Position numbers and translations under genes: made by a program. Shown here in pieces: positions 4,948 to 63,620 of a stretch of DNA of 64,000 nucleotides. Where the stretch lies: positions 448,001-512,000 of the forward strand of contig OY760686.1 in assembly GCA_963663865.1 (NCBI GenBank), written 5' to 3'. The stretch comes from Spirochaetota bacterium (GTDB taxonomy: Bacteria > Spirochaetota > UBA4802 > UBA5550). The notes under the pieces were generated by a model, which worked only from the letters and a program-made list of their open reading frames with translations, made no database searches and was not told where the DNA came from. Position 1 is the stretch's first letter. Every line of letters starts with the position of its first letter.

Positions 4948-4960
4948 ATTGTTGTTCTGG

Positions 4961-5500: not shown

Positions 5501-5507
5501 TGCCACC

Positions 5508-46161: not shown

Positions 46162-46185
46162 CGGATATTTACCCGCAGAATAAAA

Positions 46186-46891: not shown

Positions 46892-47767
46892 TTATTGAGT
46901 AAGTATTTTCACCAGCTCATCTGCTCCGTTGTGCCTGGATTTAGTCCTTTTACAGTTTGAAACTCGCCAGAACTGATCTTCAAACTGGCGCCTGAAGGGA
47001 ATGAAAATAGCGTTTGTAGCGAGCCGACGGTTTTCCCAGAAGAAGTTATAACCCGCTCCCCCGACTATAAGGTCGAAGGCCCTGAAGTAGTCCATGGCTG
47101 GAAATATACCGTCAAGGAGGCCGTTGGAAGAAAAGACACTGTAACCCTCATTCTCAAGACCCGGTCTGTGCCTCATAATCTCTTCGAATTCGCCCTCTTT
47201 CCCTGAGGCGCAGATAAGGCAGTTCCTGTCACCGCGGTTCAGGCCGAGTCTTTCAGAGGCGTCCGCACGGGAGAGAACCTCATCCTGGTTTCTTATCGTA
47301 AATGGATTCAGCTTTATTGTTGAGAAGGAGAAGCCCCAGGGTTCAGTCTCAATTATTTCATCAAAGCACTGTGTGTCTAAAACGAAACTTAATTCAGGGA
47401 TTGATATTTTGAAAAAGGATGGATTAACCTGGCGGAGCAGAAGGAGCTTCCTGCCTGGAAGGGAGGAAGCCATATTCTGTAAAGAGAACCAGAGCAAATC
47501 AATAAGTATAATATCTGGAGCAAGAGCGGCCAGTTCTCGGAAGAGAATGGATTTTTCAAAGTTTTCTCTGGTGAAGGTGCTTAGTGGTTCAGCCGGTATG
47601 AAGGTGTGAGTTATTCCTGCAAGCTCAGCAGGCCTGACGTTTTCTGAAGAGCTCAATATTGTGAATTCACAATCAATACCGGCCCGCTTAAGGGCATTGC
47701 CGACGGAAATGCCCTTGACCAGACGGCCGATTCCAGTTAGACCCGATGTTACATACGCAACTTTCAA
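46892..47767 (-). CDS. GT-B fold glycosyltransferase-like protein (GT28 C-terminal-like)
   Basis: TSGLTGIGR, DLIVGGAGYNFFWE, IPFRRQFEDQFWR. TTG start 15 nt after the upstream lipoprotein stop. Confidence 0.75.
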   Translation of the reverse strand: MKVAYVTSGLTGIGRLVKGISVGNALKRAGIDCEFTILSSSENVRPAELAGITHTFIPAEPLSTFTRENFEKSILFRELAALAPDIILIDLLWFSLQNMASSLPGRKLLLLRQVNPSFFKISIPELSFVLDTQCFDEIIETEPWGFSFSTIKLNPFTIRNQDEVLSRADASERLGLNRGDRNCLICASGKEGEFEEIMRHRPGLENEGYSVFSSNGLLDGIFPAMDYFRAFDLIVGGAGYNFFWENRRLATNAIFIPFRRQFEDQFWRVSNCKRTKSRHNGADELVKILTQ

Positions 47768-47782
47768 ATGAATGACTTAATA

Positions 47783-49036
47783 TTAGCAATAAAAATAGAA
47801 TATGCAAGATTCATTATCGTATACTGTGAATCCAGTTCCATCAATGTCGTTTATTGATACAATTCTGTCTGTTCCATTAATCATATCCTCTTCATCGATG
47901 AAAAGTATTTCATCGGGCCTGACAGCAAGAAAACGCTTTGGACCATAGAGAACAGTATCACCGGTTGGGGCATATTCACCTGTAAAGGACATGTTTTGAG
48001 AGTTTAGCTGTACAATTCGGTTATACGTAGTTTCACCGTTACCTAAATCGGAAATGTAGATTGAAGCGTCCTGATACATCACATCAGTCGGATCGTTTAG
48101 ATTAGAATATGTAGAGACGACTGTCTCGGTTGACGGATTATACTTAATTGCCCGATGCGAGGGAGCATTATTGTTAATTACGATGTACAGGATTGAGTCG
48201 TTATCAGCGGCGATGCCGGAAATTGTGTCGTTTTGAGGATCGAATCCATTTATGTTGTAATCGAGCGTTATTTCTTCAGTTGATATATTGTAGCTGTTAA
48301 GCGTTGAGCCAGTTGAGAAGTAGAGAATACCTGAGTTTCTGTCAACAGCGATAGCGCTCATGGCTGAATAAGTCAGATCGCCCAGATTCAGCATTGTGCC
48401 GGCTGAGCTTATGCTGTTGAGACAGTATATGGCACTTCCTGTCTGGTATAGTGAAAGATAGTAGGTTTCATCTGTAGAAACGTATATCCTGCCTATCATA
48501 TCATAGTCAACATCATGGGGGTAGAAATAGTAACTATTAGTCAAATCTGGGGTGAATGTGGTTGTATCAGATGAAATCACGTCCGTGCCAGTCATATCGC
48601 TAATCATGTACAGGTCATAATTAAAATGATCAGGAAATACAATCTTTGTACTCTCCAGCGCCATGCTTATTGTGACGTCGGTGTATGCGTCGGCTTCAAG
48701 ATCGGCGGTTGCGCTTCCGTAATAGGAAGCGGCGGCGGCATATGTATTGTAGGAAGCAGGAATGGCTGTGAGCTCGAAGAGTCTTGATGTGCCTGAAGGC
48801 ACTGTTACGTTGACAGTATCTCCATCCAGCTCATAGGCGGAAAATGTCTTTTCAACAGGCTCCATGTCTTCCGCGCTGATTCTGAGTGTGTATGTTGCTA
48901 TGTCAGGAACTGTCTCAGCCATGAACTTCGAAGGCAGGCTGATCCTTACTGTTGAATCTGAGGTATTCTCAGAAGAGCACGAAAGGGCTGTTAGCAGGGC
49001 GCATGTTAAAGCTGCTGAAATTATTAGTCTGTTCAT
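47783..49036 (-). CDS. Lipoprotein with Ig-like N-domain and NHL-like beta-propeller
   Basis: Lipobox TALSC, TVPSGTSRLFELTA, repeats PHDVDYD/AIAVD/GIAAD/PTDV. Start ATG 49036 after GAGG. Confidence 0.75.
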   Translation of the reverse strand: MNRLIISAALTCALLTALSCSSENTSDSTVRISLPSKFMAETVPDIATYTLRISAEDMEPVEKTFSAYELDGDTVNVTVPSGTSRLFELTAIPASYNTYAAAASYYGSATADLEADAYTDVTISMALESTKIVFPDHFNYDLYMISDMTGTDVISSDTTTFTPDLTNSYYFYPHDVDYDMIGRIYVSTDETYYLSLYQTGSAIYCLNSISSAGTMLNLGDLTYSAMSAIAVDRNSGILYFSTGSTLNSYNISTEEITLDYNINGFDPQNDTISGIAADNDSILYIVINNNAPSHRAIKYNPSTETVVSTYSNLNDPTDVMYQDASIYISDLGNGETTYNRIVQLNSQNMSFTGEYAPTGDTVLYGPKRFLAVRPDEILFIDEEDMINGTDRIVSINDIDGTGFTVYDNESCIFYFYC

Positions 49037-49085
49037 CTTGATTCCTCTTCGCAAAGTTTTCAATGGCGGCCTCAGTGATGGCCGC

Positions 49086-50879
49086 TTATTCGTAGTATTT
49101 CATCGACCAGAGTTCTTCACCCGTGTCGCTGTCTTCATGAGCAAAGTATAAGGTATTTCCAATCATTATAGTGTGGTAAAAGCTCAGGTTGTAGGGGAGC
49201 TCATGCATTTCGCCTCCTGACTCAGGGCTGTAAATAAATGCGTAATCGCCTGAGGCGATTTCCGACCCTCCTGTCTCTGAACTGCTGTAGATATACAGGT
49301 TGAGGAAATAATTGGATCCTGCTGAAAGGGTTGAGTTGATGTAAACGTCGTAGTATGCTCCGGAAGTTCCGGCGTATGTTGCGAGAATATCCACTGTGTT
49401 TTCCGCCGGGTCATAGGCCGCGACGTATATCTCAGTATCCTGAGTAGCGAGGATCCTTGACAGCGTCAGGAAAAGCCTTTCGCCATTTTCAGGGCAGGAG
49501 TTTTCGATGCTGGATTCCCCGAAGTTAAGTGTCATATCGTCAAGGGGAGCCTGTACAACAGCGGTGAGGCCGGAGTTATACCTGAAGAGCTGTGTCTCAG
49601 AATATGCGCTCTGCTGCATTGTTACATCCGCTGAGACAAGCAGGTATTCACCGCACTGAATTATGTCGCGGATATTGATCTGCGACATGCCTTCAACGGA
49701 AGGCTGGACAGAGAGCGGCTCAGCGGAAAGGTCTGAGCCTGATTGAACTATTCTGGACAGCTCATATGACTCTGTTGTCGTGTCAAAAAGTCTGAGGATA
49801 ATCTCATCATTAAAGGCAACAAGAGTTGAATTGTTGATTGAATAGCCGTCGGGGATTGACAGCTCATTCATGATTCCGTCAGCAGATATATACATAACTC
49901 TATATGTATAGCTGTAAGAATCGTAATAGCTGAAAACTGATAATCCGTTGAAGTTAAAGGGGCCGGAATCGACGCCGTAAGTGGTAAGGGCTGCCGGATT
50001 TGACGATGAGTCAACTGCCTGTTCAGATGTGCCCGATTCAGTGTCAACGATATATGGAATCGAATAGTACGCAGAGTTTGTCACATTACGGTAGGTGATG
50101 AAAGTGATAAGGCTGCTGCCGTTAAGGAACATGCTTCCAAAGTACGGGGCATCTAATTCGAGTTCAAATGTATGAAGTGTTTCATAAGTCCCGCTTCCGT
50201 CGTAGGTAAAAACGTTGAGATTGCCGGAGCTGTCTGAACCCGTGAAATAGAGAGTGCTTTTGTCGGCATCTGTTAGAATAAGATTTGAAGATATATTAAA
50301 CTGGTATGAATCCTGAGAAGAAACTGCTATCTGAGAAGCTTCACCTGATCCATCGTATTCAAAAAAGCCCCGGTTTTCGAGAGAGTCAGCGGTAGCAGTG
50401 AAAACAAGCTTCCCGTCAAGCTCCCTGAAGTTTTCAGGGCCTGAAGAGATAGGGCCATATTCATCAGTTCCGGGAAGAACGTCAGCTTCGATTTTTACAG
50501 TATAGTCCATCTGTATGGAAACCCGCTCGCTTGATCCTGCTGCAACGTTAACCGGTTCGGAGGTGGTGCCCGCGAATGGAGCGTGACCTCCGGCGTCAAA
50601 GCCTGCCGCAGTTATTCTGAGGTCAGTATCTGAGGGAACTTCAAGGCTTATATATTCAGGAAAAGGGCTTCTGACAGTAACGGGTGCTGTTTCTTCTGTA
50701 CCGCCTTCCACGTAAATTTTTACCGTCTGAACTGAATCAAGCAGACCCATTGCAGCCGCTTTGGATGTTAGGTTCAGACGGAGCTTAACCTCTCCGGAGG
50801 AAACAGCGCTGTCCTCTCCAGAACAGGAAAACAGAATAAGTGAAAGGAGAAGTGATATGGCTGTAATTGCAGATTTCAT
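49086..50879 (-). CDS. Lipoprotein with Ig-like N-domain and ELWxxDGT-like propeller
   Basis: Lipobox ILFSC, SSGPENFRELDGKLVFTA, LYFTGSD, GNTLYFAHEDSDTGEELWS. Start ATG 50879 after GGAG. Confidence 0.75.
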   Translation of the reverse strand: MKSAITAISLLLSLILFSCSGEDSAVSSGEVKLRLNLTSKAAAMGLLDSVQTVKIYVEGGTEETAPVTVRSPFPEYISLEVPSDTDLRITAAGFDAGGHAPFAGTTSEPVNVAAGSSERVSIQMDYTVKIEADVLPGTDEYGPISSGPENFRELDGKLVFTATADSLENRGFFEYDGSGEASQIAVSSQDSYQFNISSNLILTDADKSTLYFTGSDSSGNLNVFTYDGSGTYETLHTFELELDAPYFGSMFLNGSSLITFITYRNVTNSAYYSIPYIVDTESGTSEQAVDSSSNPAALTTYGVDSGPFNFNGLSVFSYYDSYSYTYRVMYISADGIMNELSIPDGYSINNSTLVAFNDEIILRLFDTTTESYELSRIVQSGSDLSAEPLSVQPSVEGMSQINIRDIIQCGEYLLVSADVTMQQSAYSETQLFRYNSGLTAVVQAPLDDMTLNFGESSIENSCPENGERLFLTLSRILATQDTEIYVAAYDPAENTVDILATYAGTSGAYYDVYINSTLSAGSNYFLNLYIYSSSETGGSEIASGDYAFIYSPESGGEMHELPYNLSFYHTIMIGNTLYFAHEDSDTGEELWSMKYYE

Positions 50880-51191
50880 AGTAGTCTCCATAATTATCAT
50901 AAATATTTCGGCTGGATCAGCCGTGACTGTCCATCAAAATTCTAATAAAACACAAAAGCATAAACATCTAAAAAAGAATAGACATTTACTGTGACACGGT
51001 TGAAAAAAATAAAAAGCACTCTCCAGACAAAAAAAATACACGAATCTGTTGAAATGCTATATATTGATAATATATAAAAAAGAGCACAAAAGGTGCATTA
51101 TTTTTAAAAAAAAGCGTTTTTTCTTTATCCTTTGCGGGATATTCTTTTGGCCTATTACGCAGGGGAAATTATTCTTTCTGGAGAACATACT

Positions 51192-51980
51192 ATGAAAATC
51201 AGGGTGTTGATTGCGGGATTGGCGGTTATAACAGCCGCAGTGTCAGCTTCTGCCGCTATTACTGTTGTTTCAGTCAAGGGGACGGCAGCCTATAAACAGG
51301 GCAGAAACTGGGTCCCTCTTACCGCGAAGATGAAGCTGAATGACGGAGTGAGGGTGAGTACCGGTGTGAGGTCAACAGTAGTCCTTGACCTTGATGGTAA
51401 TTCTGTAACCATTAAACCGCTGACAATGATGAAGGTGTATGAAAACTCATTGAAAGCAGGAACCAGGCAGACAAAAATCGGGCTCAAGCGCGGTTCTCTC
51501 AGGGCCAGTATAACCAGGGGGACAAGGGTTAAAACCGTTTTTAAGGTCGCTACCCCGGTAGCAACATCGAGTGTCAGAGGGACGGTCGAGGATGTAGTTA
51601 CGGGACCATACGGAACAAGGTTCACCGCCCCTGAAGGATCGTTCGATGTGCAGCCGAGGCATGGGCAGCCCCGAATCATAACCGGCAGGTTCGTCTTCTC
51701 AATGCCTTTTGGAAGCCAGAGGCCCAGCGTTCTTCTAAGAAGCAATGTCACTTATACCGGCGATCCCAATGCCACAGATGAGGAACAGCAGTCCCATGAG
51801 AACTTCGGAGGAGATTCTCCTGAGGGAGGCCTCGGGCTTGGAGATTCTATAATCGGGGGAACAGATTCTCCTGGCGGAGGCGATGGACACAGTGATCCGT
51901 CTTCCGTGGATGTTGATCTTCAGTGGCCGGAAAACAGCGATTCAGGCGTGAACATCGGTGTAGAGTGGCCGGTAAAATAA
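51192..51980 (+). CDS. Exported FecR-like domain protein with acidic Gly-rich tail
   Basis: Signal peptide, VKG...W.PL...L.DG..VSTG, LKRGSL, FKVATPVATSSVRGT. Start ATG 51192 after GGAG. Confidence 0.85.
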   Translation: MKIRVLIAGLAVITAAVSASAAITVVSVKGTAAYKQGRNWVPLTAKMKLNDGVRVSTGVRSTVVLDLDGNSVTIKPLTMMKVYENSLKAGTRQTKIGLKRGSLRASITRGTRVKTVFKVATPVATSSVRGTVEDVVTGPYGTRFTAPEGSFDVQPRHGQPRIITGRFVFSMPFGSQRPSVLLRSNVTYTGDPNATDEEQQSHENFGGDSPEGGLGLGDSIIGGTDSPGGGDGHSDPSSVDVDLQWPENSDSGVNIGVEWPVK

Positions 51981-52011
51981 CACAATCACAATTAAAACCG
52001 AGGAGAATTAC

Positions 52012-52470
52012 ATGAAATATAATCTGCTACTTGCGGCGATTCTGCTCCTTGCAGGGTTTCCCGCGGCCGCTCAGGACGCGGGTTCACTGGCTTTTGTCAA
52101 TCAGCTGGACGATAAGGCTTCGGCGACCTGGGGCGACGCGGTGAGATTTTTCGTTCTTACAATGGGCGGTCAGTCTGCCGGATTCCGTAAGGACATCCAG
52201 TTTTTGAACAGCCGCGGCATCTCAACGAATATCGGCCTCGCTGAAGGCGATACGCTTCGGAAGGGAGCAGCGGCCCTCATGGTCGCGAGATATCTCAAGC
52301 TGAGCGATTCTCTCTGGTACAGCATCTTCGGAACCCAGCGCTATGCCTTCAGGGCCTGCGCATCGGCGGGGATAATGCCCGCGAACGGCAGCGAACGCGA
52401 TATCATCAGCGGTCCTGAACTGATAGAGATAATGCGAATAACAGGCGAGATGAGCGGAGGGGACCGATGA
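52012..52470 (+). CDS. Exported protein with SLH-like repeats
   Basis: Signal peptide, ATWGDAV, TLRKGAAALMV, ISGPELI repeated helix-start motifs. GAGGAG RBS. Confidence 0.6.
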   Translation: MKYNLLLAAILLLAGFPAAAQDAGSLAFVNQLDDKASATWGDAVRFFVLTMGGQSAGFRKDIQFLNSRGISTNIGLAEGDTLRKGAAALMVARYLKLSDSLWYSIFGTQRYAFRACASAGIMPANGSERDIISGPELIEIMRITGEMSGGDR

Positions 52471-53831
52471 AGTTAATGTCTATAAAGAGGATTGCAGCAA
52501 TATCTGTGTTTCTTGTTTCTGCTGTGACCGTTTCTGCTCAGGAGACGGATTCACTCTTTCCCGAGTTCTCACCGGATGTGGACATGAAGAGCTCTGTTCC
52601 TGAAAACAGCTTTTCAAACAGAGGAATCCAGTTTGGAGGCTGGACGGTTCCGGTTTATTTCTCCGACTCATCCTCAGATTCCTCAACATTTGCGAACACC
52701 CTCAGGCTCTGGGGAAGGGCCTGGCTTTGGGAAAACAGCTCAATTTATATCAGAGGAAAATACACGTATACGAGAACCGATGCCGGCGAAGTTGAGTCCG
52801 ACAATATCATCGATCTTGACCTTGGGTATCTGCAGGCGGGGTTTGCTGATAATGCTCTGCGGTTTTCTGCCGGCAGGAAGTACTTTACGTTAGGCAACGG
52901 CTTCATCCTTAACGGAAGAGGCGATGGAGGCGAGATTGAGCTTACAGGCAGAATAGCTGACGTTAAGCTGCTGGCTTCGTACACCGGATTGCTCAAGAAG
53001 GACGATAACCCGTATAATCTGAGCAGTAAGGACTATTCGGACGGAGCAAAGCGTCTCTTCGCCGGCGGGTCAATATCACACACTATTTTTAACCAGACAA
53101 TTTATCTGATGGGGCTCTATCAGAAGGATTATGCCGATGAGACTGAGGTTTCAAAAAGGTACGACTCGCAGTATTATGGCGTCGGGTTAAAGGGGGTTTT
53201 CCCCGCGGGTATTATGTACTACGGTGAAATGTTTATTGAGAAGGGCAGCACCTTCTCTTACAGTTCAGTCGGAAATAATTTGACTGTCAATGAGGAGGAT
53301 ATCGACGCAATAGCTGCCGTAGCGGGTATTAACTGGAACATCGGCTCGGTCTTCAAGCCCCAGCTTATTCTACAGTACTCTTACGGGTCCGCCGACTCTG
53401 ACAGGACAGATTACTCAACACCGTATGGAAACACTGCCTCTACGGATGGGGGCTTTATTCCCTTCGGGACGTATCTTGCCGGGTACGGCCTCAGGCCTCA
53501 GATAGGGAATATGCACGCTTTCAGAGCGGGCATCTCCTTTGCGCCTCTGGATATGTCACAGTCAGTTTTTCTGAACAGGATGACTGTTATTGCCAAGTAT
53601 TCTTATTACCTAAAGGCCGACAAAGACGCTGCAGTCGATACCGGCTACGGAGCGGAACAGGTCCCGGGCGAAGCATTTGTGGGACACGGTATCGATGCAG
53701 GACTCAGATGGCGGATTTTTTCGGATCTGGCTTTATTTGCCAATTATGGCGTTTTTCTTCCCGGAGAGGCATTTGCTTCAGAAGCCGAAAAGAACCACTT
53801 CTTTATGACCGGAATGAATCTCGGGTTTTAG
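52467..53831 (+). CDS. Outer-membrane beta-barrel (alginate-export/porin-like)
   Basis: Signal peptide, alternating beta strands, AGRKYFTLGNG, C-terminal FMTGMNLGF beta signal. Confidence 0.8.
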   Translation: MKLMSIKRIAAISVFLVSAVTVSAQETDSLFPEFSPDVDMKSSVPENSFSNRGIQFGGWTVPVYFSDSSSDSSTFANTLRLWGRAWLWENSSIYIRGKYTYTRTDAGEVESDNIIDLDLGYLQAGFADNALRFSAGRKYFTLGNGFILNGRGDGGEIELTGRIADVKLLASYTGLLKKDDNPYNLSSKDYSDGAKRLFAGGSISHTIFNQTIYLMGLYQKDYADETEVSKRYDSQYYGVGLKGVFPAGIMYYGEMFIEKGSTFSYSSVGNNLTVNEEDIDAIAAVAGINWNIGSVFKPQLILQYSYGSADSDRTDYSTPYGNTASTDGGFIPFGTYLAGYGLRPQIGNMHAFRAGISFAPLDMSQSVFLNRMTVIAKYSYYLKADKDAAVDTGYGAEQVPGEAFVGHGIDAGLRWRIFSDLALFANYGVFLPGEAFASEAEKNHFFMTGMNLGF

Positions 53832-53842
53832 GGGTTTACTTG

Positions 53843-53875
53843 CGAAGCGCATTGCCTTTCAGGCGTTGCGCTTCG
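53843..53875. terminator. Stem-loop between convergent genes
   Basis: CGAAGCGCA..GCCT/AGGC..TGCGCTTCG. Overlaps the marR stop. Confidence 0.55.
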
Positions 53876-54338
53876 GTCCCCATATGTCAAAGTAGGCGCT
53901 GTCATTATCCAGCATTTCTTTCATTTTTACAAGGATATCCTCAAGCAGCTCAAGCTGCTCCTCTGAAAGCCTGTCCAGCTTCTGTGTAATCGCTTTGTTG
54001 ATAGCGGTTTTGCCCTTTTTCAGTATTGAATTTCCAGCAGCGGTGAGCGAAACGTGAATCACCCTTCTGTCATCAGGATCGTTCTCTCTTATAGCGAATC
54101 CTTTCTCGATGAGCTTGTTTATCAGAGTGGTCACATTGGGTTTGGACATGGACAGCGCCTTGCTTATCTGCGTCATCGTGGCGCGTTTTTTGTGCATAAT
54201 AAAAATCATAGCGTGTACGTCTGAAGGGGAGAGCACATTCGGCAGCGCGTTGTGCGGCGGCCTGAAGTAGTGGTTCATGAAAGTTGGCGGATAGAACAGC
54301 ATATCCTTGAGATTTTTGATTGATTCAGAACGTGTCAT
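53859..54338 (-). CDS. MarR family transcriptional regulator
   Basis: SKPNVTTLINKLIEKG, DPDDRRVIHVSLT. Start ATG 54338 after GAGG. Confidence 0.93.
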   Translation of the reverse strand: MTRSESIKNLKDMLFYPPTFMNHYFRPPHNALPNVLSPSDVHAMIFIMHKKRATMTQISKALSMSKPNVTTLINKLIEKGFAIRENDPDDRRVIHVSLTAAGNSILKKGKTAINKAITQKLDRLSEEQLELLEDILVKMKEMLDNDSAYFDIWGPKRNA

Positions 54339-54393
54339 GTTATTCCTCTTACTGGCGCGCCGCGGGTCCGCGGCGCTTTTTTTATTTTTCGGA

Positions 54394-57300
54394 TCAGCCT
54401 TTCTTTTTCTTTGCGGCATTTTCCGGTTTTCTTACAATAATTCTGGCTTCCGTGGCCGATCTGAACCTGTCGATGTACCCGAAGACCGCAGGAACTGCCA
54501 CAAGCGTCACCAGCGTTGAAATGACGATCCCGCCGATAATCGAAATACCCATCGACTGGCGCATTTGAGCCGCCTTGCCTATCCCCATAGCAAGAGGAAC
54601 CATTCCGGCAATCATGGCAAAAGTTGTCATGAGAATCGGCCTGAGCCGCCTTATTCCTGCCTGCAGAATCGCCTCCTTACGGTCCAGTCCGGAGTTGATT
54701 CCCTGAACGGCATTGTCAACAAGGAGGATTGAATTCTTTGTCACAAGCCCCACAAGCATAATCATGCCTATCATGCTGAATATATCAAGCATAAAACCTG
54801 TTATATACAGCGAGAAAAAAGCTCCGGTTATTGCTGGAGGAATCGCGAGAAGTATCGTGAACGGCGTCACAAATGATTCGTAAAGGCTTGCCAGGACAAG
54901 ATATATGAACAAAATCGCCATTAGCAGGGCGAAAACTATGCTGTCTGCCGTTTCCGCGAAGTTTTCAGAAGAGCCGCTGTAGCTGTAAGCTACGCCTTCA
55001 GGCAGCTTTATTTTGCTTTCGACAAGCTTTTGTACCTTTTCCATGGCGCTTCCAACGCCTTCTCCGGCAGCAAGGTTAGCTGTTATTTTGACAATGTATG
55101 CCTTGTTCCTTCTGTTTATTTCGGCAGAGCCTGTTGTCATCTCAGCAGCGGCGATTGAGCTCAGGTTTATCATCTTGCCGGAAACGTTCGGCACCTGCAT
55201 TGAGTAGAATAGCTTTCTGAGGTCTCTCTGCTCCGGCCTAAGGCGGGCCCTTATGTCGTAGTTATAGCTGTTTTCCTTAAAAGTACCGACTACAGCTCCT
55301 GTAATGTTATATCGCATCTCAATTCCGGCGCTTGTATTAGCTACTCCGAGGGCCTGCATCCTGTGAGGGTTGAAGTTGACTCTGAGTTCAGGGCTGCCCG
55401 GCTTCATGCTTGAGTCGATGTCGATAAGGCCCGGCACAGTTTTTATGGCTTCCAGTATCTTCCCTGCGCTGTCTTCAACAGTGAGCAGGTCGTTTCCAGA
55501 GACAATCATGATGAATGGAGCTCCCCTTTTGCTGCTTCCGGCATCGTCAACCGAAGGCCGGGCGTAGTCGAATTCCTTCATGAAGGATCGGACTTTCAGC
55601 ATATTGTCGTCTGTGTCGTGCTTGCGTTCATCTTTCAGGACAATGTTGATTGAGCCTTTGGCTGCTTCGCCCGCAGAGTTGCCCACTGACACACTGTAGT
55701 ATTCCAGGTCCCGCAGGGTCCTGATTTTATCTTCAATTTTTTCAAGGGTTTCCCTTGTACCCTGAAGGCTTGTTCCAGGAGGCATTTCAATGTTTACTGA
55801 AAACTGTCCTCTGTCTCCTCTCGGGAAAAAGGTCTTTTTTACCCCTCCGAGCAGAATGATGCCGCAGAAAAAGACGAGCACTGTCGCTGTAATTACTACA
55901 ATTGGATGTCTCAGAGAAAGGTGCATCAGCTTTTCGTACCAGATGTCGAACCTGTCCTGAAGCTTCATAAAGACACGTATAACCGGGTTTGCGGACTTCT
56001 CTCCGCTGCCAGCGAAGTAAGCGCTCAGGAACGGCGCAACTGTAAGGGCGTCAAATGTGCTTATCATCATCGCGAATATTACGGTAAAACCAAACTGCTT
56101 GAACATCTTTCCAACTGCCCCGCTGAGCATGCCTATTGGGAAGAAAACGGCGATAATTGCAAGCGTTGTCGCAATTACCGCAAGCATGACCTCTGTTGTT
56201 CCTATTTCGGCAGCTTTGTGAGAGTCCATACCGGTTTCAAGTTTTCGAAAAATATTTTCTCTTACGACAATGGCGTCATCGACGAGAAGACCTACAACAA
56301 GTGAAAGCGCCATGAGCGTCATAATATTGAAGCTGTAACCCATAAAGTTCATTACGATTACCGCTCCGAGGAGGCTGTTAGGTATGGCGACAGCGGTAAT
56401 AATTGTAGACCTTACATTTCCGAGGAAAAGGTAGACTACAAACACGGCCAGTATTATCCCCAGGACAATTGACAATATGGCTTCATCAACGTTAGTCCTT
56501 ATCCATTCGGACTGGTCGTGGGTCACGAAAAGGCTTGAATTGCCATCCTGACCTTTGAGCTGTTCGTTGATATCCTTTATCTTCTCCCGAACGCCGTCAG
56601 TAACAGTGACGGTGTTTTTTCCGGACTGTTTTACCACAGAAAGATAAACGCATGACTGAATGCCTCTTGCAGATGAGGTCTTTTTATCAGGGAAGTATAT
56701 GTATCCTTCACTGGTTACATCTTCGAGGCCGTCCTTGACCTCGCCCAGTGTGTCCACGCTGACGGAGTTTCCGAGGTCACCGGAAAAAGCCAGCAGAGTT
56801 TTGCCTATATCATTGATTCTCGTGTAGTCGCCCATTGAACGGAAAACAGTCTGGGTAGAACCATGCTCCTTCTTCCCAATAGGTACATTTTCACCGGAGC
56901 TTTTAATCTGTGACACAACGGATGTCATCGACATGTCATAATCGCGAAGTTTGCGCTGGTCTATTTCCACCTGAATTTCACGTTTTGTTCCGCCGGTGAT
57001 GGTTACATTTCCCACGTCTTTTAGCCTGGCGAGCTGGGGCTTTATCACCTCGTTCGCAAGGTCGTAGATTTTTGCCTTCGGCAGATCAGAAGTAAGTGCG
57101 AGAGTGATTACAGCTGTGGCGTCCGGGTCAAACTTCATGACGACCGGATCGTTTTCAAGGTCGTCTGGCAGATTGTTCATGGCGGTGTCAATCTTGTCGC
57201 GGACGTCCTGCGCAGCTTTGTCAACATCAATATCCATATTAAACTCAAGCGTTATGGAGGAATAGCTCTCGATATTTGTTGAGTTAATATGCTTGAGACC

Positions 57301-57525
57301 TTCAAGGGAGCCAAGCTCATCTTCAAGGGGCTTCGTGATCAGTGTTTCTATTTCGGTGGGCGATGCGCCTGAATACACAGTCGTAACTCCCACTGTTGGA
57401 AAAGAAACATCCGGGAAAAGTTCGAGAGGAATTGTTCTGTACGATATTGCGCCTATAATGATGATTATCAGGACAATACATGTTATGAATATCGGTCTTT
57501 TTATTGCGAGTTTCGCGGGATTCAT
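54394..57525 (-). CDS. RND efflux permease (AcrB/AcrD/AcrF family)
   Basis: AIKRP, GASPTEIE, GLLVDDAIVVREN, KNSILLVD, RLRPILMTT. 1043 aa. Confidence 0.96.
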   Translation of the reverse strand: MNPAKLAIKRPIFITCIVLIIIIIGAISYRTIPLELFPDVSFPTVGVTTVYSGASPTEIETLITKPLEDELGSLEGLKHINSTNIESYSSITLEFNMDIDVDKAAQDVRDKIDTAMNNLPDDLENDPVVMKFDPDATAVITLALTSDLPKAKIYDLANEVIKPQLARLKDVGNVTITGGTKREIQVEIDQRKLRDYDMSMTSVVSQIKSSGENVPIGKKEHGSTQTVFRSMGDYTRINDIGKTLLAFSGDLGNSVSVDTLGEVKDGLEDVTSEGYIYFPDKKTSSARGIQSCVYLSVVKQSGKNTVTVTDGVREKIKDINEQLKGQDGNSSLFVTHDQSEWIRTNVDEAILSIVLGIILAVFVVYLFLGNVRSTIITAVAIPNSLLGAVIVMNFMGYSFNIMTLMALSLVVGLLVDDAIVVRENIFRKLETGMDSHKAAEIGTTEVMLAVIATTLAIIAVFFPIGMLSGAVGKMFKQFGFTVIFAMMISTFDALTVAPFLSAYFAGSGEKSANPVIRVFMKLQDRFDIWYEKLMHLSLRHPIVVITATVLVFFCGIILLGGVKKTFFPRGDRGQFSVNIEMPPGTSLQGTRETLEKIEDKIRTLRDLEYYSVSVGNSAGEAAKGSINIVLKDERKHDTDDNMLKVRSFMKEFDYARPSVDDAGSSKRGAPFIMIVSGNDLLTVEDSAGKILEAIKTVPGLIDIDSSMKPGSPELRVNFNPHRMQALGVANTSAGIEMRYNITGAVVGTFKENSYNYDIRARLRPEQRDLRKLFYSMQVPNVSGKMINLSSIAAAEMTTGSAEINRRNKAYIVKITANLAAGEGVGSAMEKVQKLVESKIKLPEGVAYSYSGSSENFAETADSIVFALLMAILFIYLVLASLYESFVTPFTILLAIPPAITGAFFSLYITGFMLDIFSMIGMIMLVGLVTKNSILLVDNAVQGINSGLDRKEAILQAGIRRLRPILMTTFAMIAGMVPLAMGIGKAAQMRQSMGISIIGGIVISTLVTLVAVPAVFGYIDRFRSATEARIIVRKPENAAKKKKG

Positions 57526-57575
57526 TATTGTCTCCTTTTGTTGTTATCCGTAAGTGATTTCATGATGCCAGGCTT

Positions 57576-58994
57576 TTAAATTACGGTGTCGATATAGTCG
57601 ATGTAATTTGTTATGAGCTGATATTTCAGTTTTACTATTTCTGTTTTTGCGGATGCGATGGAATTCTGTGTCTGTATAAGATATGAAAGATTAAGCCTGC
57701 CGCGCGAGTATTTTCTTTTTTCAGCCGCAAGCTGCCTGTTAAGAGTGTTGAGGTACTCTGTTTTTTTATCAATCATCTGCTTAAGCGCTCTCGCTGATTC
57801 TGAGAGGGTCAGGACTGTTTTTGTGTATGTGTTGACTGCTGCTTCTTTTTCGTATTGAAGCGATTTGAGCTGAATATTAACCGAGTCGAGCCCGCTTTCA
57901 GCCTCATTGTTGCCAAGTTTGTATTCAAACTCAAATCCAAGGTTCCAGTCTCTGTAGGGGAGATCAGAAAAGGCGTCATCCTTGCTCCCGCTTAGGTTTT
58001 TTTGCGTCACTCCGGCAGTGATGTTCAGTTCCGGGAGCAGCCTGTTTTCGTAGACACCTTTCGAGTAACGGAGCTGTTCAAGCGCGAGTGAAAGTATTTT
58101 TGCTGTAGTCGTCTGTTCAAAGCCGATAATACTGTATTCGGAGGTATAGGCTTTTTGATACCATTCATCAAACTCTGTATCAGATGGGCTGATGTCCCTG
58201 CTTCCAAGGTAGACGTAGAGGCTGTTGATCAGGTTGTTCAGTGAAGCTCTGTTGTCTTCAAGAGAGCGCTGATATTCCAGAACAGTGGCTGCTGTTTTCT
58301 GATAGTCATCTTCGTCGGCGAGGCCGTTCTGATAGTTCCGTTTGACCTGACTGCGCTGTATGATTGAGTTGGCAAGCTCCTTTTCTGTGTTGTCGAGCTG
58401 CTTAATGAAAAAAATCCACTGGAAGTACAGCTTTTTGTAAGAGTTAAGTGTTGATTTGTTTGATTCGAGTATTTTGACCTTCTCTATTTCAACCTGCATG
58501 GCGGTGTTGTTCTCAGTAAATCTGTCAATCTTTCCAAGAAAGTTGTAAAGAATAGGCTGTTTTACTGTGATGCCTACTGCTGGTGTGTACGTGTTGCGCG
58601 ATTCAAAAGCGGAAAAGCCTTCCATTCCGCTTCTGGAATAGCCGAGATCAACCTGTACGTCTGTTCCGGTGGATGTGAACTTTTTAGCGAGTCCTGCAGT
58701 AAGCTCCGAACTTATACTATTTCCTGCTTCGTTGCCCAGGTAGGCAAGGACCTGGCTTGATGAGCTGTATGCTCCGGATGAGGTAAGGCTGATATCGCTC
58801 AGGGAACGGGCGCTTTTGAGGGCGTTTATCTGTGTGAGCAGGTCAATCCCGTTGGCCTTAATCTCAGGCATGTTGGATGTCACTGTTTCCAGATACAGTT
58901 TGAAATCAAGGGATTTGGCTTTCTCTGAGACATCCGCACTGAAAGCAGATGTTGAGCAAAGCAATAAGGCTGTCAAGAGTGCTGATTTTCTCAT
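57576..58994 (-). CDS. TolC family outer-membrane efflux protein
   Basis: Signal peptide, ITVKQPIL, LLPELNITAG, AEKRKYSRG duplicated OEP layout. Confidence 0.88.
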   Translation of the reverse strand: MRKSALLTALLLCSTSAFSADVSEKAKSLDFKLYLETVTSNMPEIKANGIDLLTQINALKSARSLSDISLTSSGAYSSSSQVLAYLGNEAGNSISSELTAGLAKKFTSTGTDVQVDLGYSRSGMEGFSAFESRNTYTPAVGITVKQPILYNFLGKIDRFTENNTAMQVEIEKVKILESNKSTLNSYKKLYFQWIFFIKQLDNTEKELANSIIQRSQVKRNYQNGLADEDDYQKTAATVLEYQRSLEDNRASLNNLINSLYVYLGSRDISPSDTEFDEWYQKAYTSEYSIIGFEQTTTAKILSLALEQLRYSKGVYENRLLPELNITAGVTQKNLSGSKDDAFSDLPYRDWNLGFEFEYKLGNNEAESGLDSVNIQLKSLQYEKEAAVNTYTKTVLTLSESARALKQMIDKKTEYLNTLNRQLAAEKRKYSRGRLNLSYLIQTQNSIASAKTEIVKLKYQLITNYIDYIDTVI

Positions 58995-59262
58995 TGGATA
59001 CCATCCATATATTATAAATAATAAATATTATACTAATAAAAAAGGCCATGTTTCTATCCCGTTAAGATTAGTCAATATTTAAAACTAATAAACTATGAAA
59101 GGTTAAAAAGCGAAATGGTTCCGCAGGAAAGTAAAAACGTGATAACTTTACAAATAATCAATATTTTTCTAAAAAAATCAACAATCAATAATGTTCTTTA
59201 CTTAATTGGAATAATAGACTAAACTTACTCATGCTGAGTTGCATAAGTAGTTATTTATATGA

Positions 59263-61779
59263 ATGTCCCGAACGGGACAAGCGCCCATTTTAAGCCCGGT
59301 GGATGGATTTCCTGGCATGATATTCAGAATACTTACAGCCTTTCTTTTGCTAACAGTCGTGTCAGTCTTAGCCGCTGCGGGCAACGCAGTGATGTCTCTC
59401 TCTTCAGAGGAGACTCAGTGGCTTGATGAGCACAAGGGAAGGATAAACCTGGCTTTTGATCCGAATTTCCCGCCCCTCGAATATGTCGATAACGAAGGAA
59501 ACTACAGAGGTTTTTCGGCTGATCTCATCAGGGCTCTTGAAAAAAAAATTGGATTCAGGTTTAACAGGTCAATTTATACCTCGTGGAAAGACGTTCTGGA
59601 CGGAGCGAGACGGGGTGAGGTTGATGTTGTTACAATGCTTTCAGAAACACCTGAGCGCCGAGGGTATCTTTTATTCACCCGCCCCTACATAAGCATTCCG
59701 TTTGTTATTGTTTCAACATCGAAACTGAAAGGAAATGCTGACTTCGAAAACCTGAAGGGGAAAAAGGTCGGTGTTGTCCATTCGTATACCATTCACGAGA
59801 TAGTCATGAGAGAACATCCTGCTATCGATATTGTCCCGGTTGATAATGAACGATCCGGTCTGCTGAAGCTTTCGGCAGGTGAGTTGGATGCAATGGTCAT
59901 GTATGTCTCAACAGCTTCCTATTTCATCAGGAATCTGGGGCTTACGGACATGAGGATTTCAGATGTTGTTAAATACAGGTACGGATTTAGCATTGGTGTC
60001 AGCAATAAGTATCCTATACTGAGGGACATTCTTCAAAGGGCCCTTGATGAAATCGGCAAAGAAGAGATTGATACCTACTACGACCGATGGGTAAAAATCA
60101 GCACAATATTTTTTTATGAAAGCCCCCGATTCTGGCGTACGGCAGGAGTCGTTCTGGGAGCGATTGCGGTTTTTTTACTCCTAATAGTCTACTATAACAG
60201 GAGGCTTAAGGACCAGGTAACAAAAAAAACAAATGAATACATCATGGCCCGCAACAATCTCATCACTGTTTTCAACTCGATTCAGTCTGCCCTGTTTATC
60301 GTTTCAAACAGTGGGGCTATAACCCAGATGAATGTTTCAGCTGTTGAGCTGCTTGAAAATACCGGCAATATTGATTCGGCAGGGGGATTGTTCTGGGAGG
60401 CCGTTCCAGAGCTCAAGTTATACAGGAGCGACTTCGACGGGGTAATCAGAACGCTGAAGCCAAGGAACATCCACAGAATTGATATCGGGCAGAATGAAAG
60501 GCGGTACACAGTCAATGTTTTCTTCATACCAGTGTCATTTGAGGAGGACTCGGGAGCAATTATCCGGATAGATGATATATCTGAGCTCGAAAAAAAAGAA
60601 AAGCTTCTTCGTGACGCCCAAAAAATGGAAATAATTGGGACGCTTGCCGGCGGAATTGCTCATGATTTCAACAATATCCTGGGCGGAATAATCGGGTTTG
60701 TATCTATAATGAAGATAAAACTTGAAAAGGGGGAGAGTATTCCCGAGGAGAGACTGAAAAAATATCTGACGATGCTGGACGAATCGGGTCACAGAGCGGC
60801 GGAACTCGTACAGCAGCTGCTTCTTCTCGGGAAAAAACGGGACCTTGATGCTGTTCCGATTGATCTGAACAGGAAGCTCGAATATATTGTTGATGTATGC
60901 AGAAATTCCTTCGATAAAAGCATTGTAATAAAACCTGGCTTCTATGATTCGCCGGTAATGATTAGCGGGGATCCTGGACAGATTGAGCAGGCCCTGCTTA
61001 ATATTTTTATCAATGCTTCACATGCCATGACAATAATGAGGGCTGAAGATGAGAAGCAGGGCGGTGAGCTGGGATTCTACTTTGACAGGTATACCGCGGA
61101 CGGATATGAGTTTCATCACGACCTGAGTCCGGGTGATTACTGGGTTCTGTCGATATATGATTCAGGAGTCGGGATGACCGGCAGCGATGCGGCCAGGATA
61201 TTCGATCCATTTTTTTCTACCAAGCCGAAGGGACAGGGAACAGGACTGGGCTTAACAATGGTATATAATATAATTACCGGTCATGGCGGCTTTGTGAATG
61301 TGTATTCGGAACGAGGCGTGGGAACGACATTCAAGATCTATCTGCCGGTGCTTGAGTCAGCTGATAACAACAGCGTAGAGGCTTCAGTCAGCAAAGAGGT
61401 GCCGACGGGTGAGGGCTGTATTCTCGTTGTTGATGATGAGCAGGTCATCAGAGAAATTGCCGGCTCGATACTGACTGAATGCGGATATGACGTAGTCACC
61501 GCCGAAAACGGATTTGAGGCGCTGAATATTTTCAGGGAAAGGGCAGCTGAGATTAAACTTGTCTTACTTGATATGGCCATGCCCGGTATGTCTGGACTCG
61601 AGGTATTTGTTGAGCTTCAAAAAATGGATACAGAGGTGCGCGTTCTTCTGTCATCGGGCTTCCGAATGGACGAAAGGGTGCAAAAGGCCATTGGACTCGG
61701 GGTTAAGGGGTTTGTCCAAAAGCCCTATAACTTCCGAAAGCTGGCTGAAGAGGTCGCCTCCGTTATTTCTATGGTGTAG
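59263..61779 (+). CDS. Hybrid histidine kinase (periplasmic SBP family 3 sensor, PAS, HisKA, HATPase, REC)
   Basis: DPNFPPLE, GTLAGGIAHDFNNIL, NIFINA, DSGVG, FDPFFSTK, GTGLGL, LVVDDE..LLDMAMPG..KPY. Start may be ATG 59317. Confidence 0.95.
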   Translation: MSRTGQAPILSPVDGFPGMIFRILTAFLLLTVVSVLAAAGNAVMSLSSEETQWLDEHKGRINLAFDPNFPPLEYVDNEGNYRGFSADLIRALEKKIGFRFNRSIYTSWKDVLDGARRGEVDVVTMLSETPERRGYLLFTRPYISIPFVIVSTSKLKGNADFENLKGKKVGVVHSYTIHEIVMREHPAIDIVPVDNERSGLLKLSAGELDAMVMYVSTASYFIRNLGLTDMRISDVVKYRYGFSIGVSNKYPILRDILQRALDEIGKEEIDTYYDRWVKISTIFFYESPRFWRTAGVVLGAIAVFLLLIVYYNRRLKDQVTKKTNEYIMARNNLITVFNSIQSALFIVSNSGAITQMNVSAVELLENTGNIDSAGGLFWEAVPELKLYRSDFDGVIRTLKPRNIHRIDIGQNERRYTVNVFFIPVSFEEDSGAIIRIDDISELEKKEKLLRDAQKMEIIGTLAGGIAHDFNNILGGIIGFVSIMKIKLEKGESIPEERLKKYLTMLDESGHRAAELVQQLLLLGKKRDLDAVPIDLNRKLEYIVDVCRNSFDKSIVIKPGFYDSPVMISGDPGQIEQALLNIFINASHAMTIMRAEDEKQGGELGFYFDRYTADGYEFHHDLSPGDYWVLSIYDSGVGMTGSDAARIFDPFFSTKPKGQGTGLGLTMVYNIITGHGGFVNVYSERGVGTTFKIYLPVLESADNNSVEASVSKEVPTGEGCILVVDDEQVIREIAGSILTECGYDVVTAENGFEALNIFRERAAEIKLVLLDMAMPGMSGLEVFVELQKMDTEVRVLLSSGFRMDERVQKAIGLGVKGFVQKPYNFRKLAEEVASVISMV

Positions 61780-61930
61780 TATGATTAAGCCGGTCTTATG
61801 CTGAATAATTCACTCAACGCTGCCTGCCGCAAAGCGTAAATATCCCCCCCCCTGAAAAAAGAGTAGAATTCTTTTCTTGACTCAATGGATTGGCGGCAAA
61901 TATTGACATAAACCTAAACAGGGAAAGATC

Positions 61931-63523
61931 ATGAGCGATATAAATCACGAAATTAAGCGAAGACGCACTTTCGCTATAATATCACATCCGGATGCTGGAA
62001 AGACCACTTTGACGGAAAAGCTGCTTCTGTATGGGGGGGCGCTTGAGCTTGCGGGTTCTGTTACCGCCAAGAAGAAGCAGCGGGACACATCGTCAGACTG
62101 GATGGAGCTTGAAAAGAAAAGAGGGATCTCAATATCTTCGACGCTGCTTCAGTTTGAGTACAGGGGATTCAGAATGAACCTGCTTGACACTCCGGGGCAC
62201 AGAGACTTCTCTGAGGACACTTACCGGGTGCTTATGGCGGTTGACGCTGTTATCATGGTAATCGACGCCGGTAAGGGAATTGAAAGCCAGACGCGGAAGC
62301 TGTTTGAAATTTGCCGCAGGCGGGGAATACCCATCTTTACCTTTATGAATAAGCTTGACCGACCGGCCATGCAGCCGCTTGAACTTATTGATCAGCTTGA
62401 GAAAGTTCTTAACATTCACGCGTTTCCTGTCAACTGGCCGCTTGAAAGCGGCCCTTATTTCAAGGGCGTTTATGACCGGCTGCAGAAAAAAGTACACATG
62501 TACGAAAAGGTACCAGGAGGCGCTTACCGGGCCCCTGTGTCCATTCGCGGAATAGATGATCCTCTGGTCAGAGAAGTACTTCCTCCTCAGTCATATGAGC
62601 AGATCGTCGAGGAGATCGAGATGCTCGATATCGCGCAGGGCGGCTTTGACGACAGGGCAGTTTTTGCCGGAGAGACTACTCCGGTTTTTTTCGGCAGCGC
62701 GGCCAACAACTTCGGTATTGAGCTGATGCTTGAAGGCTTTCTTAATCATTCGGGAGGACCGGCGTCCCGTCTGTCGGGCGGGATTGAGGTCCCGCTTGAG
62801 GGGCCGGCTTTTTCGGGCTTTGTTTTTAAGATACAGACGAACATGAACCGCCAGCACAGAGACAGAATGGTATTTGTAAGAATCTGTTCCGGAAGGTTTA
62901 CGAGGGACATGACGGCTGTTAACAAGAGGACCGGTAAGGAGGTCAGGCTTTCAAGCTCTCACAGTATGTTCGGGAGGGACCGGGAAACAATTGACGAGGC
63001 ATTCGCGGGAGATATTCTCGGATTTATAACCAATGCGGATTTCAGAATCGGGGACACCGTAACTACTGACCAGTCTGTTTCATTTAGCGAAATCCCGCGT
63101 TTTGCTCCCGAGTGTTTCGCCTATATTCAGAATACAACGGTTTCGAATTATAAATCGTTCAGAAAAGGACTTGATCATCTTTTAGCGGAGGATATTGTCC
63201 AGGCGTTTAACCTTGAGAGTCATGTGAGTCCCGTACCGCTGCTCGGGGCTGTCGGCCCGCTGCAGTTTGAGGTAATGCAGTACCGGCTTAGCGATGAATA
63301 CAATGTTGAGTCGAGACTTGATACAAAGCAGTGGGAATTGCTAAGGTGGCTGCCATCCGGTGAATCCGCGGCTGATTACAGAGACAGGTTGCCTATGAAC
63401 TGCGCATTCGGCGCTGATGACAGAGGCCGTTCGGTGCTTCTGTTCCCGAATGAATGGACTATGAACTTTTTCAGGGAAAAAAATCCTGAAACAGTTCTTC
63501 TGGATTCACCGGATGCCGGGTGA
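61931..63523 (+). CDS. prfC: Peptide chain release factor 3
   Basis: RRTFAIISHPDAGKTTLTEK, SDWMELEKKRGISI, DTPGHRDFSEDTYR, NKLD, GAVGPLQFEV. Confidence 0.98.
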   Translation: MSDINHEIKRRRTFAIISHPDAGKTTLTEKLLLYGGALELAGSVTAKKKQRDTSSDWMELEKKRGISISSTLLQFEYRGFRMNLLDTPGHRDFSEDTYRVLMAVDAVIMVIDAGKGIESQTRKLFEICRRRGIPIFTFMNKLDRPAMQPLELIDQLEKVLNIHAFPVNWPLESGPYFKGVYDRLQKKVHMYEKVPGGAYRAPVSIRGIDDPLVREVLPPQSYEQIVEEIEMLDIAQGGFDDRAVFAGETTPVFFGSAANNFGIELMLEGFLNHSGGPASRLSGGIEVPLEGPAFSGFVFKIQTNMNRQHRDRMVFVRICSGRFTRDMTAVNKRTGKEVRLSSSHSMFGRDRETIDEAFAGDILGFITNADFRIGDTVTTDQSVSFSEIPRFAPECFAYIQNTTVSNYKSFRKGLDHLLAEDIVQAFNLESHVSPVPLLGAVGPLQFEVMQYRLSDEYNVESRLDTKQWELLRWLPSGESAADYRDRLPMNCAFGADDRGRSVLLFPNEWTMNFFREKNPETVLLDSPDAG

Positions 63524-63620
63524 TTCCAGCGCTACAGTGAAAAATATTGTTGCGCTTTGCGAAGCCGGGTGTATGATAGATGTATTATAATAGCATAAAC
63601 TGATATTATTGGAGGTCGAT

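Follow-up and report, generated by a model that had tools for sequence, protein, structure and literature searches.

A FecR-domain protein, a small secreted protein, an outer-membrane barrel and two lipoproteins at a Spirochaetota locus: the candidate envelope half of a CHASE2 cyclase relay

Genes of the locus and their families

We describe here a divergent envelope locus in the genome of a Spirochaetota bacterium (assembly GCA_963663865.1). The window, that is, the whole stretch of 64,000 nucleotides that was analyzed (contig OY760686.1, positions 448,001 to 512,000), contains the six open reading frames (ORFs) that an earlier note on this DNA had listed, and all of them were found as described there; positions below are those of the window unless a contig is named. 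The locus lies at about 495000-502000 on the genome contig C1. On the minus strand are the genes for a cytoplasmic protein of 291 amino acids (aa) (46892..47767) and for two lipoproteins, Lip2 (47783..49063) and Lip1 (49086..50900). Divergently, on the plus strand, are the genes for a secreted FecR-domain protein (51132..51980), a secreted 152-aa protein named p152 here (52012..52470) and an outer-membrane beta-barrel of 454 aa (52467..53831). The earlier note had suggested that these genes might form an undescribed system of export and anchoring that resembles the type V pilus, consisting of propeller tip adhesins, a donor-strand partner, a barrel, a cell-wall tether and a glycosyltransferase. 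Our comparison with related genomes points to a different reading, namely the envelope side of a signaling module. A scan for promoters and terminators across the locus gave nothing usable. The remark of the note that no sigma factor or TonB-dependent receptor is nearby was confirmed by a genome-wide profile search: the nearest Sigma70_r2 match among 12 sigma-70-family genes is at C1:390359, about 105 kb from the locus, and the nearest TonB_dep_Rec match among four TonB-dependent receptors is at C1:791470, about 290 kb from it.

The FecR-like protein was correctly named in the earlier note (Pfam FecR, E 1e-7, 32.7 bits against a cut-off of 24). It probably starts at M21 (51192) and consists of a signal peptide, the FecR domain, an acidic/Gly linker and a C-terminal strand. 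In the alignment of its family (A4), a disordered acidic/Gly linker is followed by a conserved strand of the pattern [AS]xVxVxIxWP. The strand that had been read as a donor strand is indeed conserved at the extreme C-terminus of the family, and in the protein of this locus the amphipathic motif is duplicated (51903..51971, plus strand; residues 258-266 and 273-280). Terminal strands of similar pattern are also present in FecR proteins of distant families. A second class of C-terminus, ending in [DE]Pxx[LI], was seen in five distant loci with the gene order p152-fecR-barrel (L117, L125, L127, L128 and L133). The FecR-family profile matched no sequence in the PDB.

p152 represents a Spirochaetota-specific family, as judged from the family alignment. 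Of the 151 Spirochaetota genomes sampled, 42 encode a member, whereas several large families have none. It is not a lipoprotein and has no lipobox, and it matched neither Pfam families nor PDB sequences. The label of an SLH-like protein, given to it in the earlier note, found no support: none of 21 family members matched an SLH model (E<=1), and the profile search for SLH (PF00395) found no match in the genome, while four control genomes were positive. The sole hint of SLH was a feature score of 0.84 in the Atlas, where the nearest entries are Spirochaetota clusters without names. The stop of p152 and the start of the barrel gene overlap by 4 nt, and the same overlap is found in many related loci. 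The barrel protein, with a signal peptide and a C-terminal Phe, matched Pfam Alginate_exp at residues 231-442 (E 6.8e-10, 38.7 bits against a cut-off of 25.2), in agreement with the earlier assignment as a beta-barrel. Its profile gave chance-level matches only against PDB sequences, and none to AlgE.

Conservation of the cluster and its CHASE2 cyclase partner

To collect related loci, a sequence collection was scanned with an exact peptide pattern taken from the FecR alignment, which yielded 80 loci, all from uncultured Spirochaetota. The fecR gene is present in 80/80 of them by construction, and the sample is biased to close relatives because the search pattern was an exact motif. Further samples were 41 related genomes and a first set of 20 fetched loci. 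The barrel is encoded in 35 of the 41 genomes, and fecR, p152 and the barrel gene are colinear in 20/20 fetched loci. The full trio was found in 76 of the 80 loci; three others are truncated by the contig end, and one (L107) has no detectable p152.

The flanking ORFs of the 80 loci were clustered to find recurrent neighbors, and one further recurrent gene emerged. It encodes a protein of about 873 aa with Pfam CHASE2 (E 5.6e-32) and Guanylate_cyc (E 3.5e-25) domains. Of 62 loci whose sequence extends 1.5 kb or more past the barrel gene, 45 encode this CHASE2 cyclase there; in 37 cases its gene shares the strand of the barrel gene and is no more than 400 bp away. Of the 20 loci in the first set, 17 have it next to the barrel, among them that of the closest relative (L010), in which its start is 124 bp past the barrel gene. 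Since the conserved partner is a CHASE2 cyclase, the likeliest function of the locus shifts from export or anchoring to signaling. Moreover, 18 loci of distant Spirochaetota families keep the genes for p152, FecR, barrel and cyclase together in several different orders (p152-barrel-fecR-x-cyclase, p152-fecR-barrel-cyclase and cyclase-p152-fecR-barrel), some loci being without cyclase or fecR. The gene content, the homology of the parts, their predicted export signals and their clustering despite the shuffled order are all directly observed, and nothing here speaks more strongly for a functional unit than this clustering, which outlasts gene reshuffling. Two further genes, both without annotation, were noticed in distant loci (L118-L122 and L132): one between fecR and cyclase encodes a lipoprotein of 530-565 aa, which also starts with Cys, a short linker and a beta-strand, and the other, before p152, encodes a secreted protein of about 370 aa.

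The genome studied here has an orthologue of this cyclase at C1:513580-516186 (50% identity over the full length), 11.7 kb past the barrel and beyond the window. The block between barrel and cyclase, which occupies 53859..64000 of the window and is regarded as outside the module (strand not applicable), encodes a MarR protein, an RND pump, a TolC-like protein, a hybrid histidine kinase with SBP_bac_3, RF3 and an ankyrin protein over about 11.7 kb, and has the look of a lineage-specific insertion or rearrangement. The cyclase gene is followed by one for an S41 C-terminal processing protease with PDZ and Peptidase_S41 domains (4169-5563, plus strand, of the segment L110, which corresponds to C1:512080-517686). 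An S41 peptidase gene follows the cyclase also in 16 of the 80 related loci, and it may not be a coincidence that a protease reading C-termini is encoded near a FecR family with a conserved C-terminus.

The Alginate_exp match of the barrel, together with a possible GT-B gene within the Lip operon, would also suit exopolysaccharide export, in which an AlgE-like channel is assisted by p152 as an AlgK-like helper, with a glycosyltransferase as the source of the polymer and the propeller lipoproteins as its modifiers. Acyltransferase_3/HGSNAT genes upstream in 9 of the 80 loci could be taken in the same sense. We consider this highly improbable, because no synthase, copolymerase or Wza/Wzc-type gene was present among the recurrent neighbors of the 80 loci and because p152 is no lipoprotein and its family gave no TPR or Sel1 match in Pfam. 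The glycosyltransferase itself is doubtful, too. The 291-aa protein, called a GT-B enzyme in the earlier note, matched Glyco_tran_28_C only below the threshold (E 0.098, 13.1 bits against a cut-off of 22); its profile found no PDB sequence, and none of its six relatives has a name. The gene is not constant but appears as a sporadic accessory of Lip2-type genes, upstream in 9 of 80 loci and beside a Lip2 homologue in 2 of 20. Thus, of the single six-gene system proposed before, the linkage of Lip1, Lip2, FecR, p152 and barrel stands and the glycosyltransferase-like gene drops out; neither the latter nor an SLH-type cell-wall tether is supported as a conserved part.

Past the 291-aa gene (44630-46755, minus strand) are genes for a 176-aa lipoprotein, an LIC_10030-family protein (NCBIfam, E 8.4e-10) and a 189-aa membrane protein. 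In the closest relative (L010) the genes for the lipoprotein and the LIC_10030-family protein occupy the same place, and 6 of the 80 loci encode relatives of the membrane protein upstream of the trio.

Lip1, Lip2 and their shared N-terminal domain

Lip1 (604 aa; probable start M8, lipobox Cys26) and Lip2 (426 aa; lipobox Cys29) each begin with a signal peptide, the lipobox Cys, a short acidic/Ser linker and a beta-strand, although BLASTP detected no similarity between them. In Lip1, a transthyretin/Ig-like beta-sandwich, named the N-domain here, is predicted to begin a few residues past the lipidated Cys (residues 26-135; 50496..50825, minus strand) in a model by AlphaFold2 (AF2) with a predicted local distance difference test (pLDDT) of 77.5. 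The corresponding domain of Lip2 (residues 29-134; 48662..48979, minus strand; strands 36-131 in the model) was found by a hidden Markov model (HMM) that had been built from 15 N-domains of other genomes, with Lip1 and Lip2 left out. When this HMM was run against the 4132 ORFs of at least 100 aa in the genome, only Lip2 (E 1.5e-15) and Lip1 (E 2.8e-8) were hit, and a second whole-genome search with the alignment A2 again returned these two alone. Because an HMM of other genomes' N-domains picks exactly Lip1 and Lip2, the shared domain reflects true homology. Lip1 and Lip2 belong to a lineage-specific lipoprotein family with a conserved N-terminal beta-sandwich.

In this family the lipobox Cys is invariant across 77 N-domains, and no stretch of the domain is as well conserved as the first strand (A in 53, V in 64, I in 64 and G in 53 of the 77, compared with 25% for the mean column identity). 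Many lipoproteins adjoining the trio in relatives likewise start with Cys, a short linker and a strand of the TATVRINLG type. Most N-domains have, between strands 1 and 2 (about columns 41-62 of the alignment A5), an insert of an amphipathic helix (SxIDRxLxFF) followed by AxAQ; this insert, a possible processing site, is missing in Lip1, Lip2 and a few others. Neither protein matched a Pfam family at E<=0.1. Against PDB sequences, the Lip1 and Lip2 profiles found nothing of note and the N-domain profile gave chance-level matches only. In the Atlas, the nearest clusters to the Lip2 N-domain are without names, and DUF4493 and DUF4458 scored no higher than 0.80 and 0.79, respectively.

The C-terminal modules of the family are very different. 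The AF2 model of Lip2 (pLDDT 89.3, predicted template modelling score 0.87) shows a seven-strand sandwich and a propeller and was matched by Foldseek to propeller structures, and Lip2 has 370 representative relatives at E<=0.001; Pfam NHL was matched by 32 of 84 aligned family members, so that the propeller of Lip2 is of the NHL type. The representative of Lip2 in the collection (P0003, 379 aa) begins at residue 48 of the ORF, without signal peptide and lipobox; since the Cys is conserved in at least 90% of the 84 relatives, the longer form is likely the gene. Lip1 is a near orphan, which was found only in its own genome among the 41 related genomes and had one distant match in a large protein collection. 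Its C-terminal part consists of degenerate ELWxxDGT repeats. Lip1 shares 23% identity with a 605-aa lipoprotein that adjoins the trio in the related locus L046 and has four clear ELWxxDGT repeats (TIGR04534, E 8.8e-39). Other members of about 240 aa have an FN3-like second half and occur in tandem arrays, the short two-domain members standing in arrays of 4-5.

The strand-exchange mechanism proposed in the earlier note has to be weighed against these data. There, strand 1 of the lipoproteins would be cut off and the groove of the N-domain refilled by the C-terminal strand of the FecR protein, which would anchor the propellers as tip adhesins in the manner of type V pili. The precursors are in fact lipoproteins with the first strand close after the Cys, the conserved amphipathic end strand of FecR follows a disordered linker and has a pattern like that of the lipoproteins' first strand, and the tandem arrays of short members could be those of pilins. 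The fold search went partly in the same direction. The nearest fold to the Lip1 N-domain is 4q1z, the N-terminal domain of a Bacteroides DUF4876 protein (Z 8.9, Foldseek E 5.6e-4), followed by 3up6_B, a Bacteroides 'cell adhesion protein' (Z 8.8, Foldseek E 2.8e-3), and Z scores of 8.0 for 4qdg, 7.8 for 3gf8, 7.7 for Mfa2, 6.8 for Mfa3 and 6.4 each for Mfa1 and FimA were obtained; entries of the Joint Center for Structural Genomics in the list that have no titles are presumably pilin-family members. Foldseek E values against pilins ranged from 2.8e-3 to 4e-2, and the alignments begin near pilin residues 30-40. Thus, pilins are among the nearest folds, as the note expected, but Z scores of 6.4-8.8 are in a range where, according to the tool's own remark on values below about 8, a common sandwich arrangement may be all that is shared. 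In the same list FN3 and transthyretin-like domains also reach Z 6-7. Two pilotin lipoproteins are among the nearest folds as well (2yjl, Z 8.4; 5wec, Z 7.6). A fold family missing from the lists is not thereby excluded.

Other results tell against the pilus, and we regard it as very unlikely. Neither Lip1 nor Lip2 matched a FimA/Mfa family of Pfam, and PF06321 and PF13149 are absent from the genome by a search that matched both in the Bacteroides thetaiotaomicron control. The common architecture noticed earlier holds for the signal peptide, lipobox, linker, strand and sandwich N-domain and fails for the Ser-Lys, which had been taken as the cleavage site: S[KR] follows strand 1 in 4 of 77 family members. 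Any K or R is found in the loop after strand 1 in 43 of the 77, where composition would predict about 33; the loop of the other 34 is free of basic residues. At the place of the second pilin domain Lip1 and Lip2 carry a propeller (in Lip2 by model), one genome in which no N-domain genes were detected (G030) still has the FecR tail, and the conserved partner of the trio is a cyclase. The gingipain-type Peptidase_C25 (PF01364) had no match in the genome, nor in any control genome.

A different use of the same strands is conceivable, though a long shot. The FecR C-terminal strand and the lipoprotein first strand may compete for one groove of the N-domain, so that a ligand of, or a pull on, a propeller lipoprotein at the surface would change FecR, and the change would be read by the CHASE2 cyclase. 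If true, this would be a strand-swap sensor that links surface adhesins to cyclic AMP (cAMP) and is related in principle to type V pili.

The N-domain genes are linked to the trio by position. Of 55 loci in which 3 kb or more of sequence precedes fecR, 38 have 1 to 5 copies upstream of it; of 58 loci in which 3 kb or more follows the barrel, none has a copy downstream. The 41 related genomes gave 83 N-domain matches, of which 40 are no farther than 12 kb from the barrel gene, in 23 of the 29 domain-bearing genomes, where well below one would be expected by chance; the class of 'far' matches is overestimated because the assemblies are fragmented. The two halves of the locus thus co-occur, as the neighborhood survey suggested in the earlier note was to reveal, with N-domain genes directly upstream of the trio in most related genomes. 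Where N-domain genes are missing, a family of secreted proteins of about 385 aa (N-terminus MK...ATTFEMQITPG) is encoded divergently beside fecR in L012, L017 and L020 and in 7 of the 80 loci, and it may substitute for the N-domain lipoproteins.

This arrangement allows two other explanations. One is the export or display of surface lipoproteins in a Slam-like way, in which barrel, FecR and p152 would move or hold the lipoproteins, the N-domain would serve as an address tag for the C-terminal domains as cargo, and the cyclase would be a mere neighbor or regulator. The union of a single conserved N-domain, with its first strand as the best conserved stretch, with very different C-terminal modules is what such a tag would look like; 0 to 5 copies directly upstream of the trio and nearest folds that include the N-terminal domains of Bacteroides lipoproteins (4q1z, 4ecn) and the pilotins 2yjl and 5wec are also consistent with it. 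We nevertheless judge it unlikely, as the barrel is of the Alginate_exp and not of the Slam family, 17 of 55 loci and whole genomes (e.g., G018 and G030) have the trio but no detectable N-domain gene, the most constant extra partner is a signaling enzyme, and the surface exposure of the lipoproteins is putative.

The other explanation, about equally unlikely in our estimation, is that the lipoproteins are co-regulated outputs, for example cAMP-controlled adhesins, that are kept adjacent for the sake of regulation and do not touch the core. The lipoprotein content differs widely between loci, and of 29 loci with an N-domain gene within 500 bp of fecR, 19 have it divergently transcribed. In Sinorhizobium meliloti, the neighbors of cyaD1, smc02177 and smc02178, are described as targets of Clr/cAMP and dispensable for perception (PMC5498481). 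On the other hand, the N-domain gene is co-directional in 10 of the 29 loci and even overlaps the start of fecR in two (L043 and L048), and one N-terminal domain strictly conserved over varied cargo suggests a shared step of docking or sorting.

A candidate relay and its relation to known systems

In our reading, to which we give even odds, the locus is the part in the outer envelope of a signaling module conserved in Spirochaetota, with Lip1 and Lip2 as accessory modules. It is preferred to a pilus because the conserved partner in related bacteria is a membrane sensor that makes cAMP. The core would comprise four parts, namely the secreted FecR-domain protein, p152, the Alginate_exp-type barrel and the inner-membrane CHASE2 adenylate/guanylate cyclase, and a rearrangement would have displaced the cyclase by 11.7 kb from the rest of the core in this genome. 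The conserved N-terminal beta-sandwich of the lipoproteins probably docks them onto the core, and the variable C-terminal modules (NHL propeller, ELWxxDGT repeats and FN3-like domains) probably bind cues. An event at the outer membrane or the cell surface may then be passed via the barrel to FecR and p152 in the periplasm and from them to the CHASE2 domain, which would alter cAMP synthesis. We infer the physical contacts among the parts, the direction of signal flow and the place of the lipoproteins as inputs, not outputs. A complex prediction for barrel, p152 and FecR supports nothing in this respect, as the control with the barrel replaced scored high, too.

The relay rests in part on a known pairing, since FecR-domain proteins are encoded beside CHASE2 sensors in other bacteria. 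The Burkholderia 'BiofilmReg' operon pairs a LysM-FecR protein (COG4254) with a CHASE2 histidine kinase (PMC5192318), the S. meliloti CHASE2 cyclase CyaD1 (SMc02176) is encoded near the FecR-domain gene smc02177 and the periplasmic-protein gene smc02178 (PMC5498481), and the outer-membrane barrel protein NsrA is required for signaling through CyaK and CyaD1/D2 (PMC7529298; PMC13001267). The factors recognized by CHASE2 domains are unknown, according to the Pfam description as quoted in PMC5192318.

Several points weigh against the relay. In S. meliloti, smc02177 and smc02178 are cAMP-Clr targets that are dispensable for signal perception (PMC5498481), and for this reason the FecR protein or the lipoproteins of the present locus may be outputs as well. 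In 17 of 62 related loci no cyclase gene follows the barrel, and in this genome the two are not adjacent. No N-domain lipoproteins were detected in the 18 distant loci, where other lipoproteins that likewise begin with Cys, linker and strand stand in for them. Moreover, the likeness of NsrA to the barrel, and of SMc02178 to p152, is proposed for their roles, and no homology is claimed. Literature searches on spirochete FecR proteins and outer-membrane barrels, type V pili and surface lipoproteins listed no paper on this module, which does not prove that there is none.

If the relay is right, its separate parts are well defined for experiments: a barrel, a FecR protein, a small protein, a cyclase and exchangeable propeller lipoproteins, in a compact module that is conserved across many uncultured spirochetes. 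The N-domain adds a new family of lipoprotein N-terminal domains with an unusually conserved first strand, which bears on the sorting and docking of envelope lipoproteins in spirochetes. In addition, inspection corrected three annotations, those of a pilus, an SLH protein and a glycosyltransferase.

Among known systems, the alginate exporter AlgE/AlgK shares with the locus the AlgE-family Pfam match of the barrel and differs in that the locus has no TPR lipoprotein partner and no synthase among its recurrent neighbors. In FecA-FecR-FecI, a FecR domain likewise stands between an outer-membrane barrel and a signaling step at the inner membrane, whereas the locus has no TonB-dependent transducer or extracytoplasmic function (ECF) sigma factor nearby, and its FecR protein is a secreted one that lacks an anti-sigma domain and has a beta-strand at its end. 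The Slam (type XI) translocon is similar in that an outer-membrane barrel is encoded beside varied lipoprotein genes. The Slam barrel is of DUF560 and carries a TPR domain, while here Alginate_exp was the sole barrel family found and the periplasmic parts are separate proteins (FecR and p152). The type V pili of Bacteroidota (FimA/Mfa1) have lipoprotein precursors with the first strand soon after the Cys and give middling fold matches. They belong to another phylum, and the locus differs from them in having no sequence-family match, no conserved basic site and no pilin C-terminal domain, and in having a barrel and a cyclase. The spirochete antigen Lp49 of Leptospira (3bws), which consists of an Ig-like domain plus a propeller, took third place among the Foldseek matches of the complete Lip2 model (E 1.8e-8, TMq 0.43, 440 columns), and the N-domain profile found no sequence similarity in the PDB.

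The sensors with CHASE2 domains come closer. To our knowledge, NsrA-CyaK of Sinorhizobium is the only system in which a CHASE2 sensor is linked to an outer-membrane protein. The Burkholderia BiofilmReg operon resembles the locus in encoding a secreted FecR-domain protein beside a CHASE2 sensor; it differs in its output through a kinase and a response regulator and in its LysM domain, and neither a barrel nor N-domain lipoproteins are described for it (PMC5192318). NsrA with CyaK, CyaD1 and CyaD2 shares an outer-membrane barrel, inner-membrane CHASE2 cyclases and, beside one of these cyclases, genes for a FecR-domain protein and a small periplasmic protein (PMC5498481; PMC7529298). NsrA has about 1200 aa, with its barrel in residues 600-1200 (PMC7529298), in contrast to the separate 454-aa barrel of the Alginate_exp type here. 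The propeller lipoprotein family would be an addition in the spirochete module. Our best reading of the locus is thus a spirochete variant of the poorly understood relay from the outer membrane to a CHASE2 cyclase, to which a new family of propeller lipoproteins has been joined.

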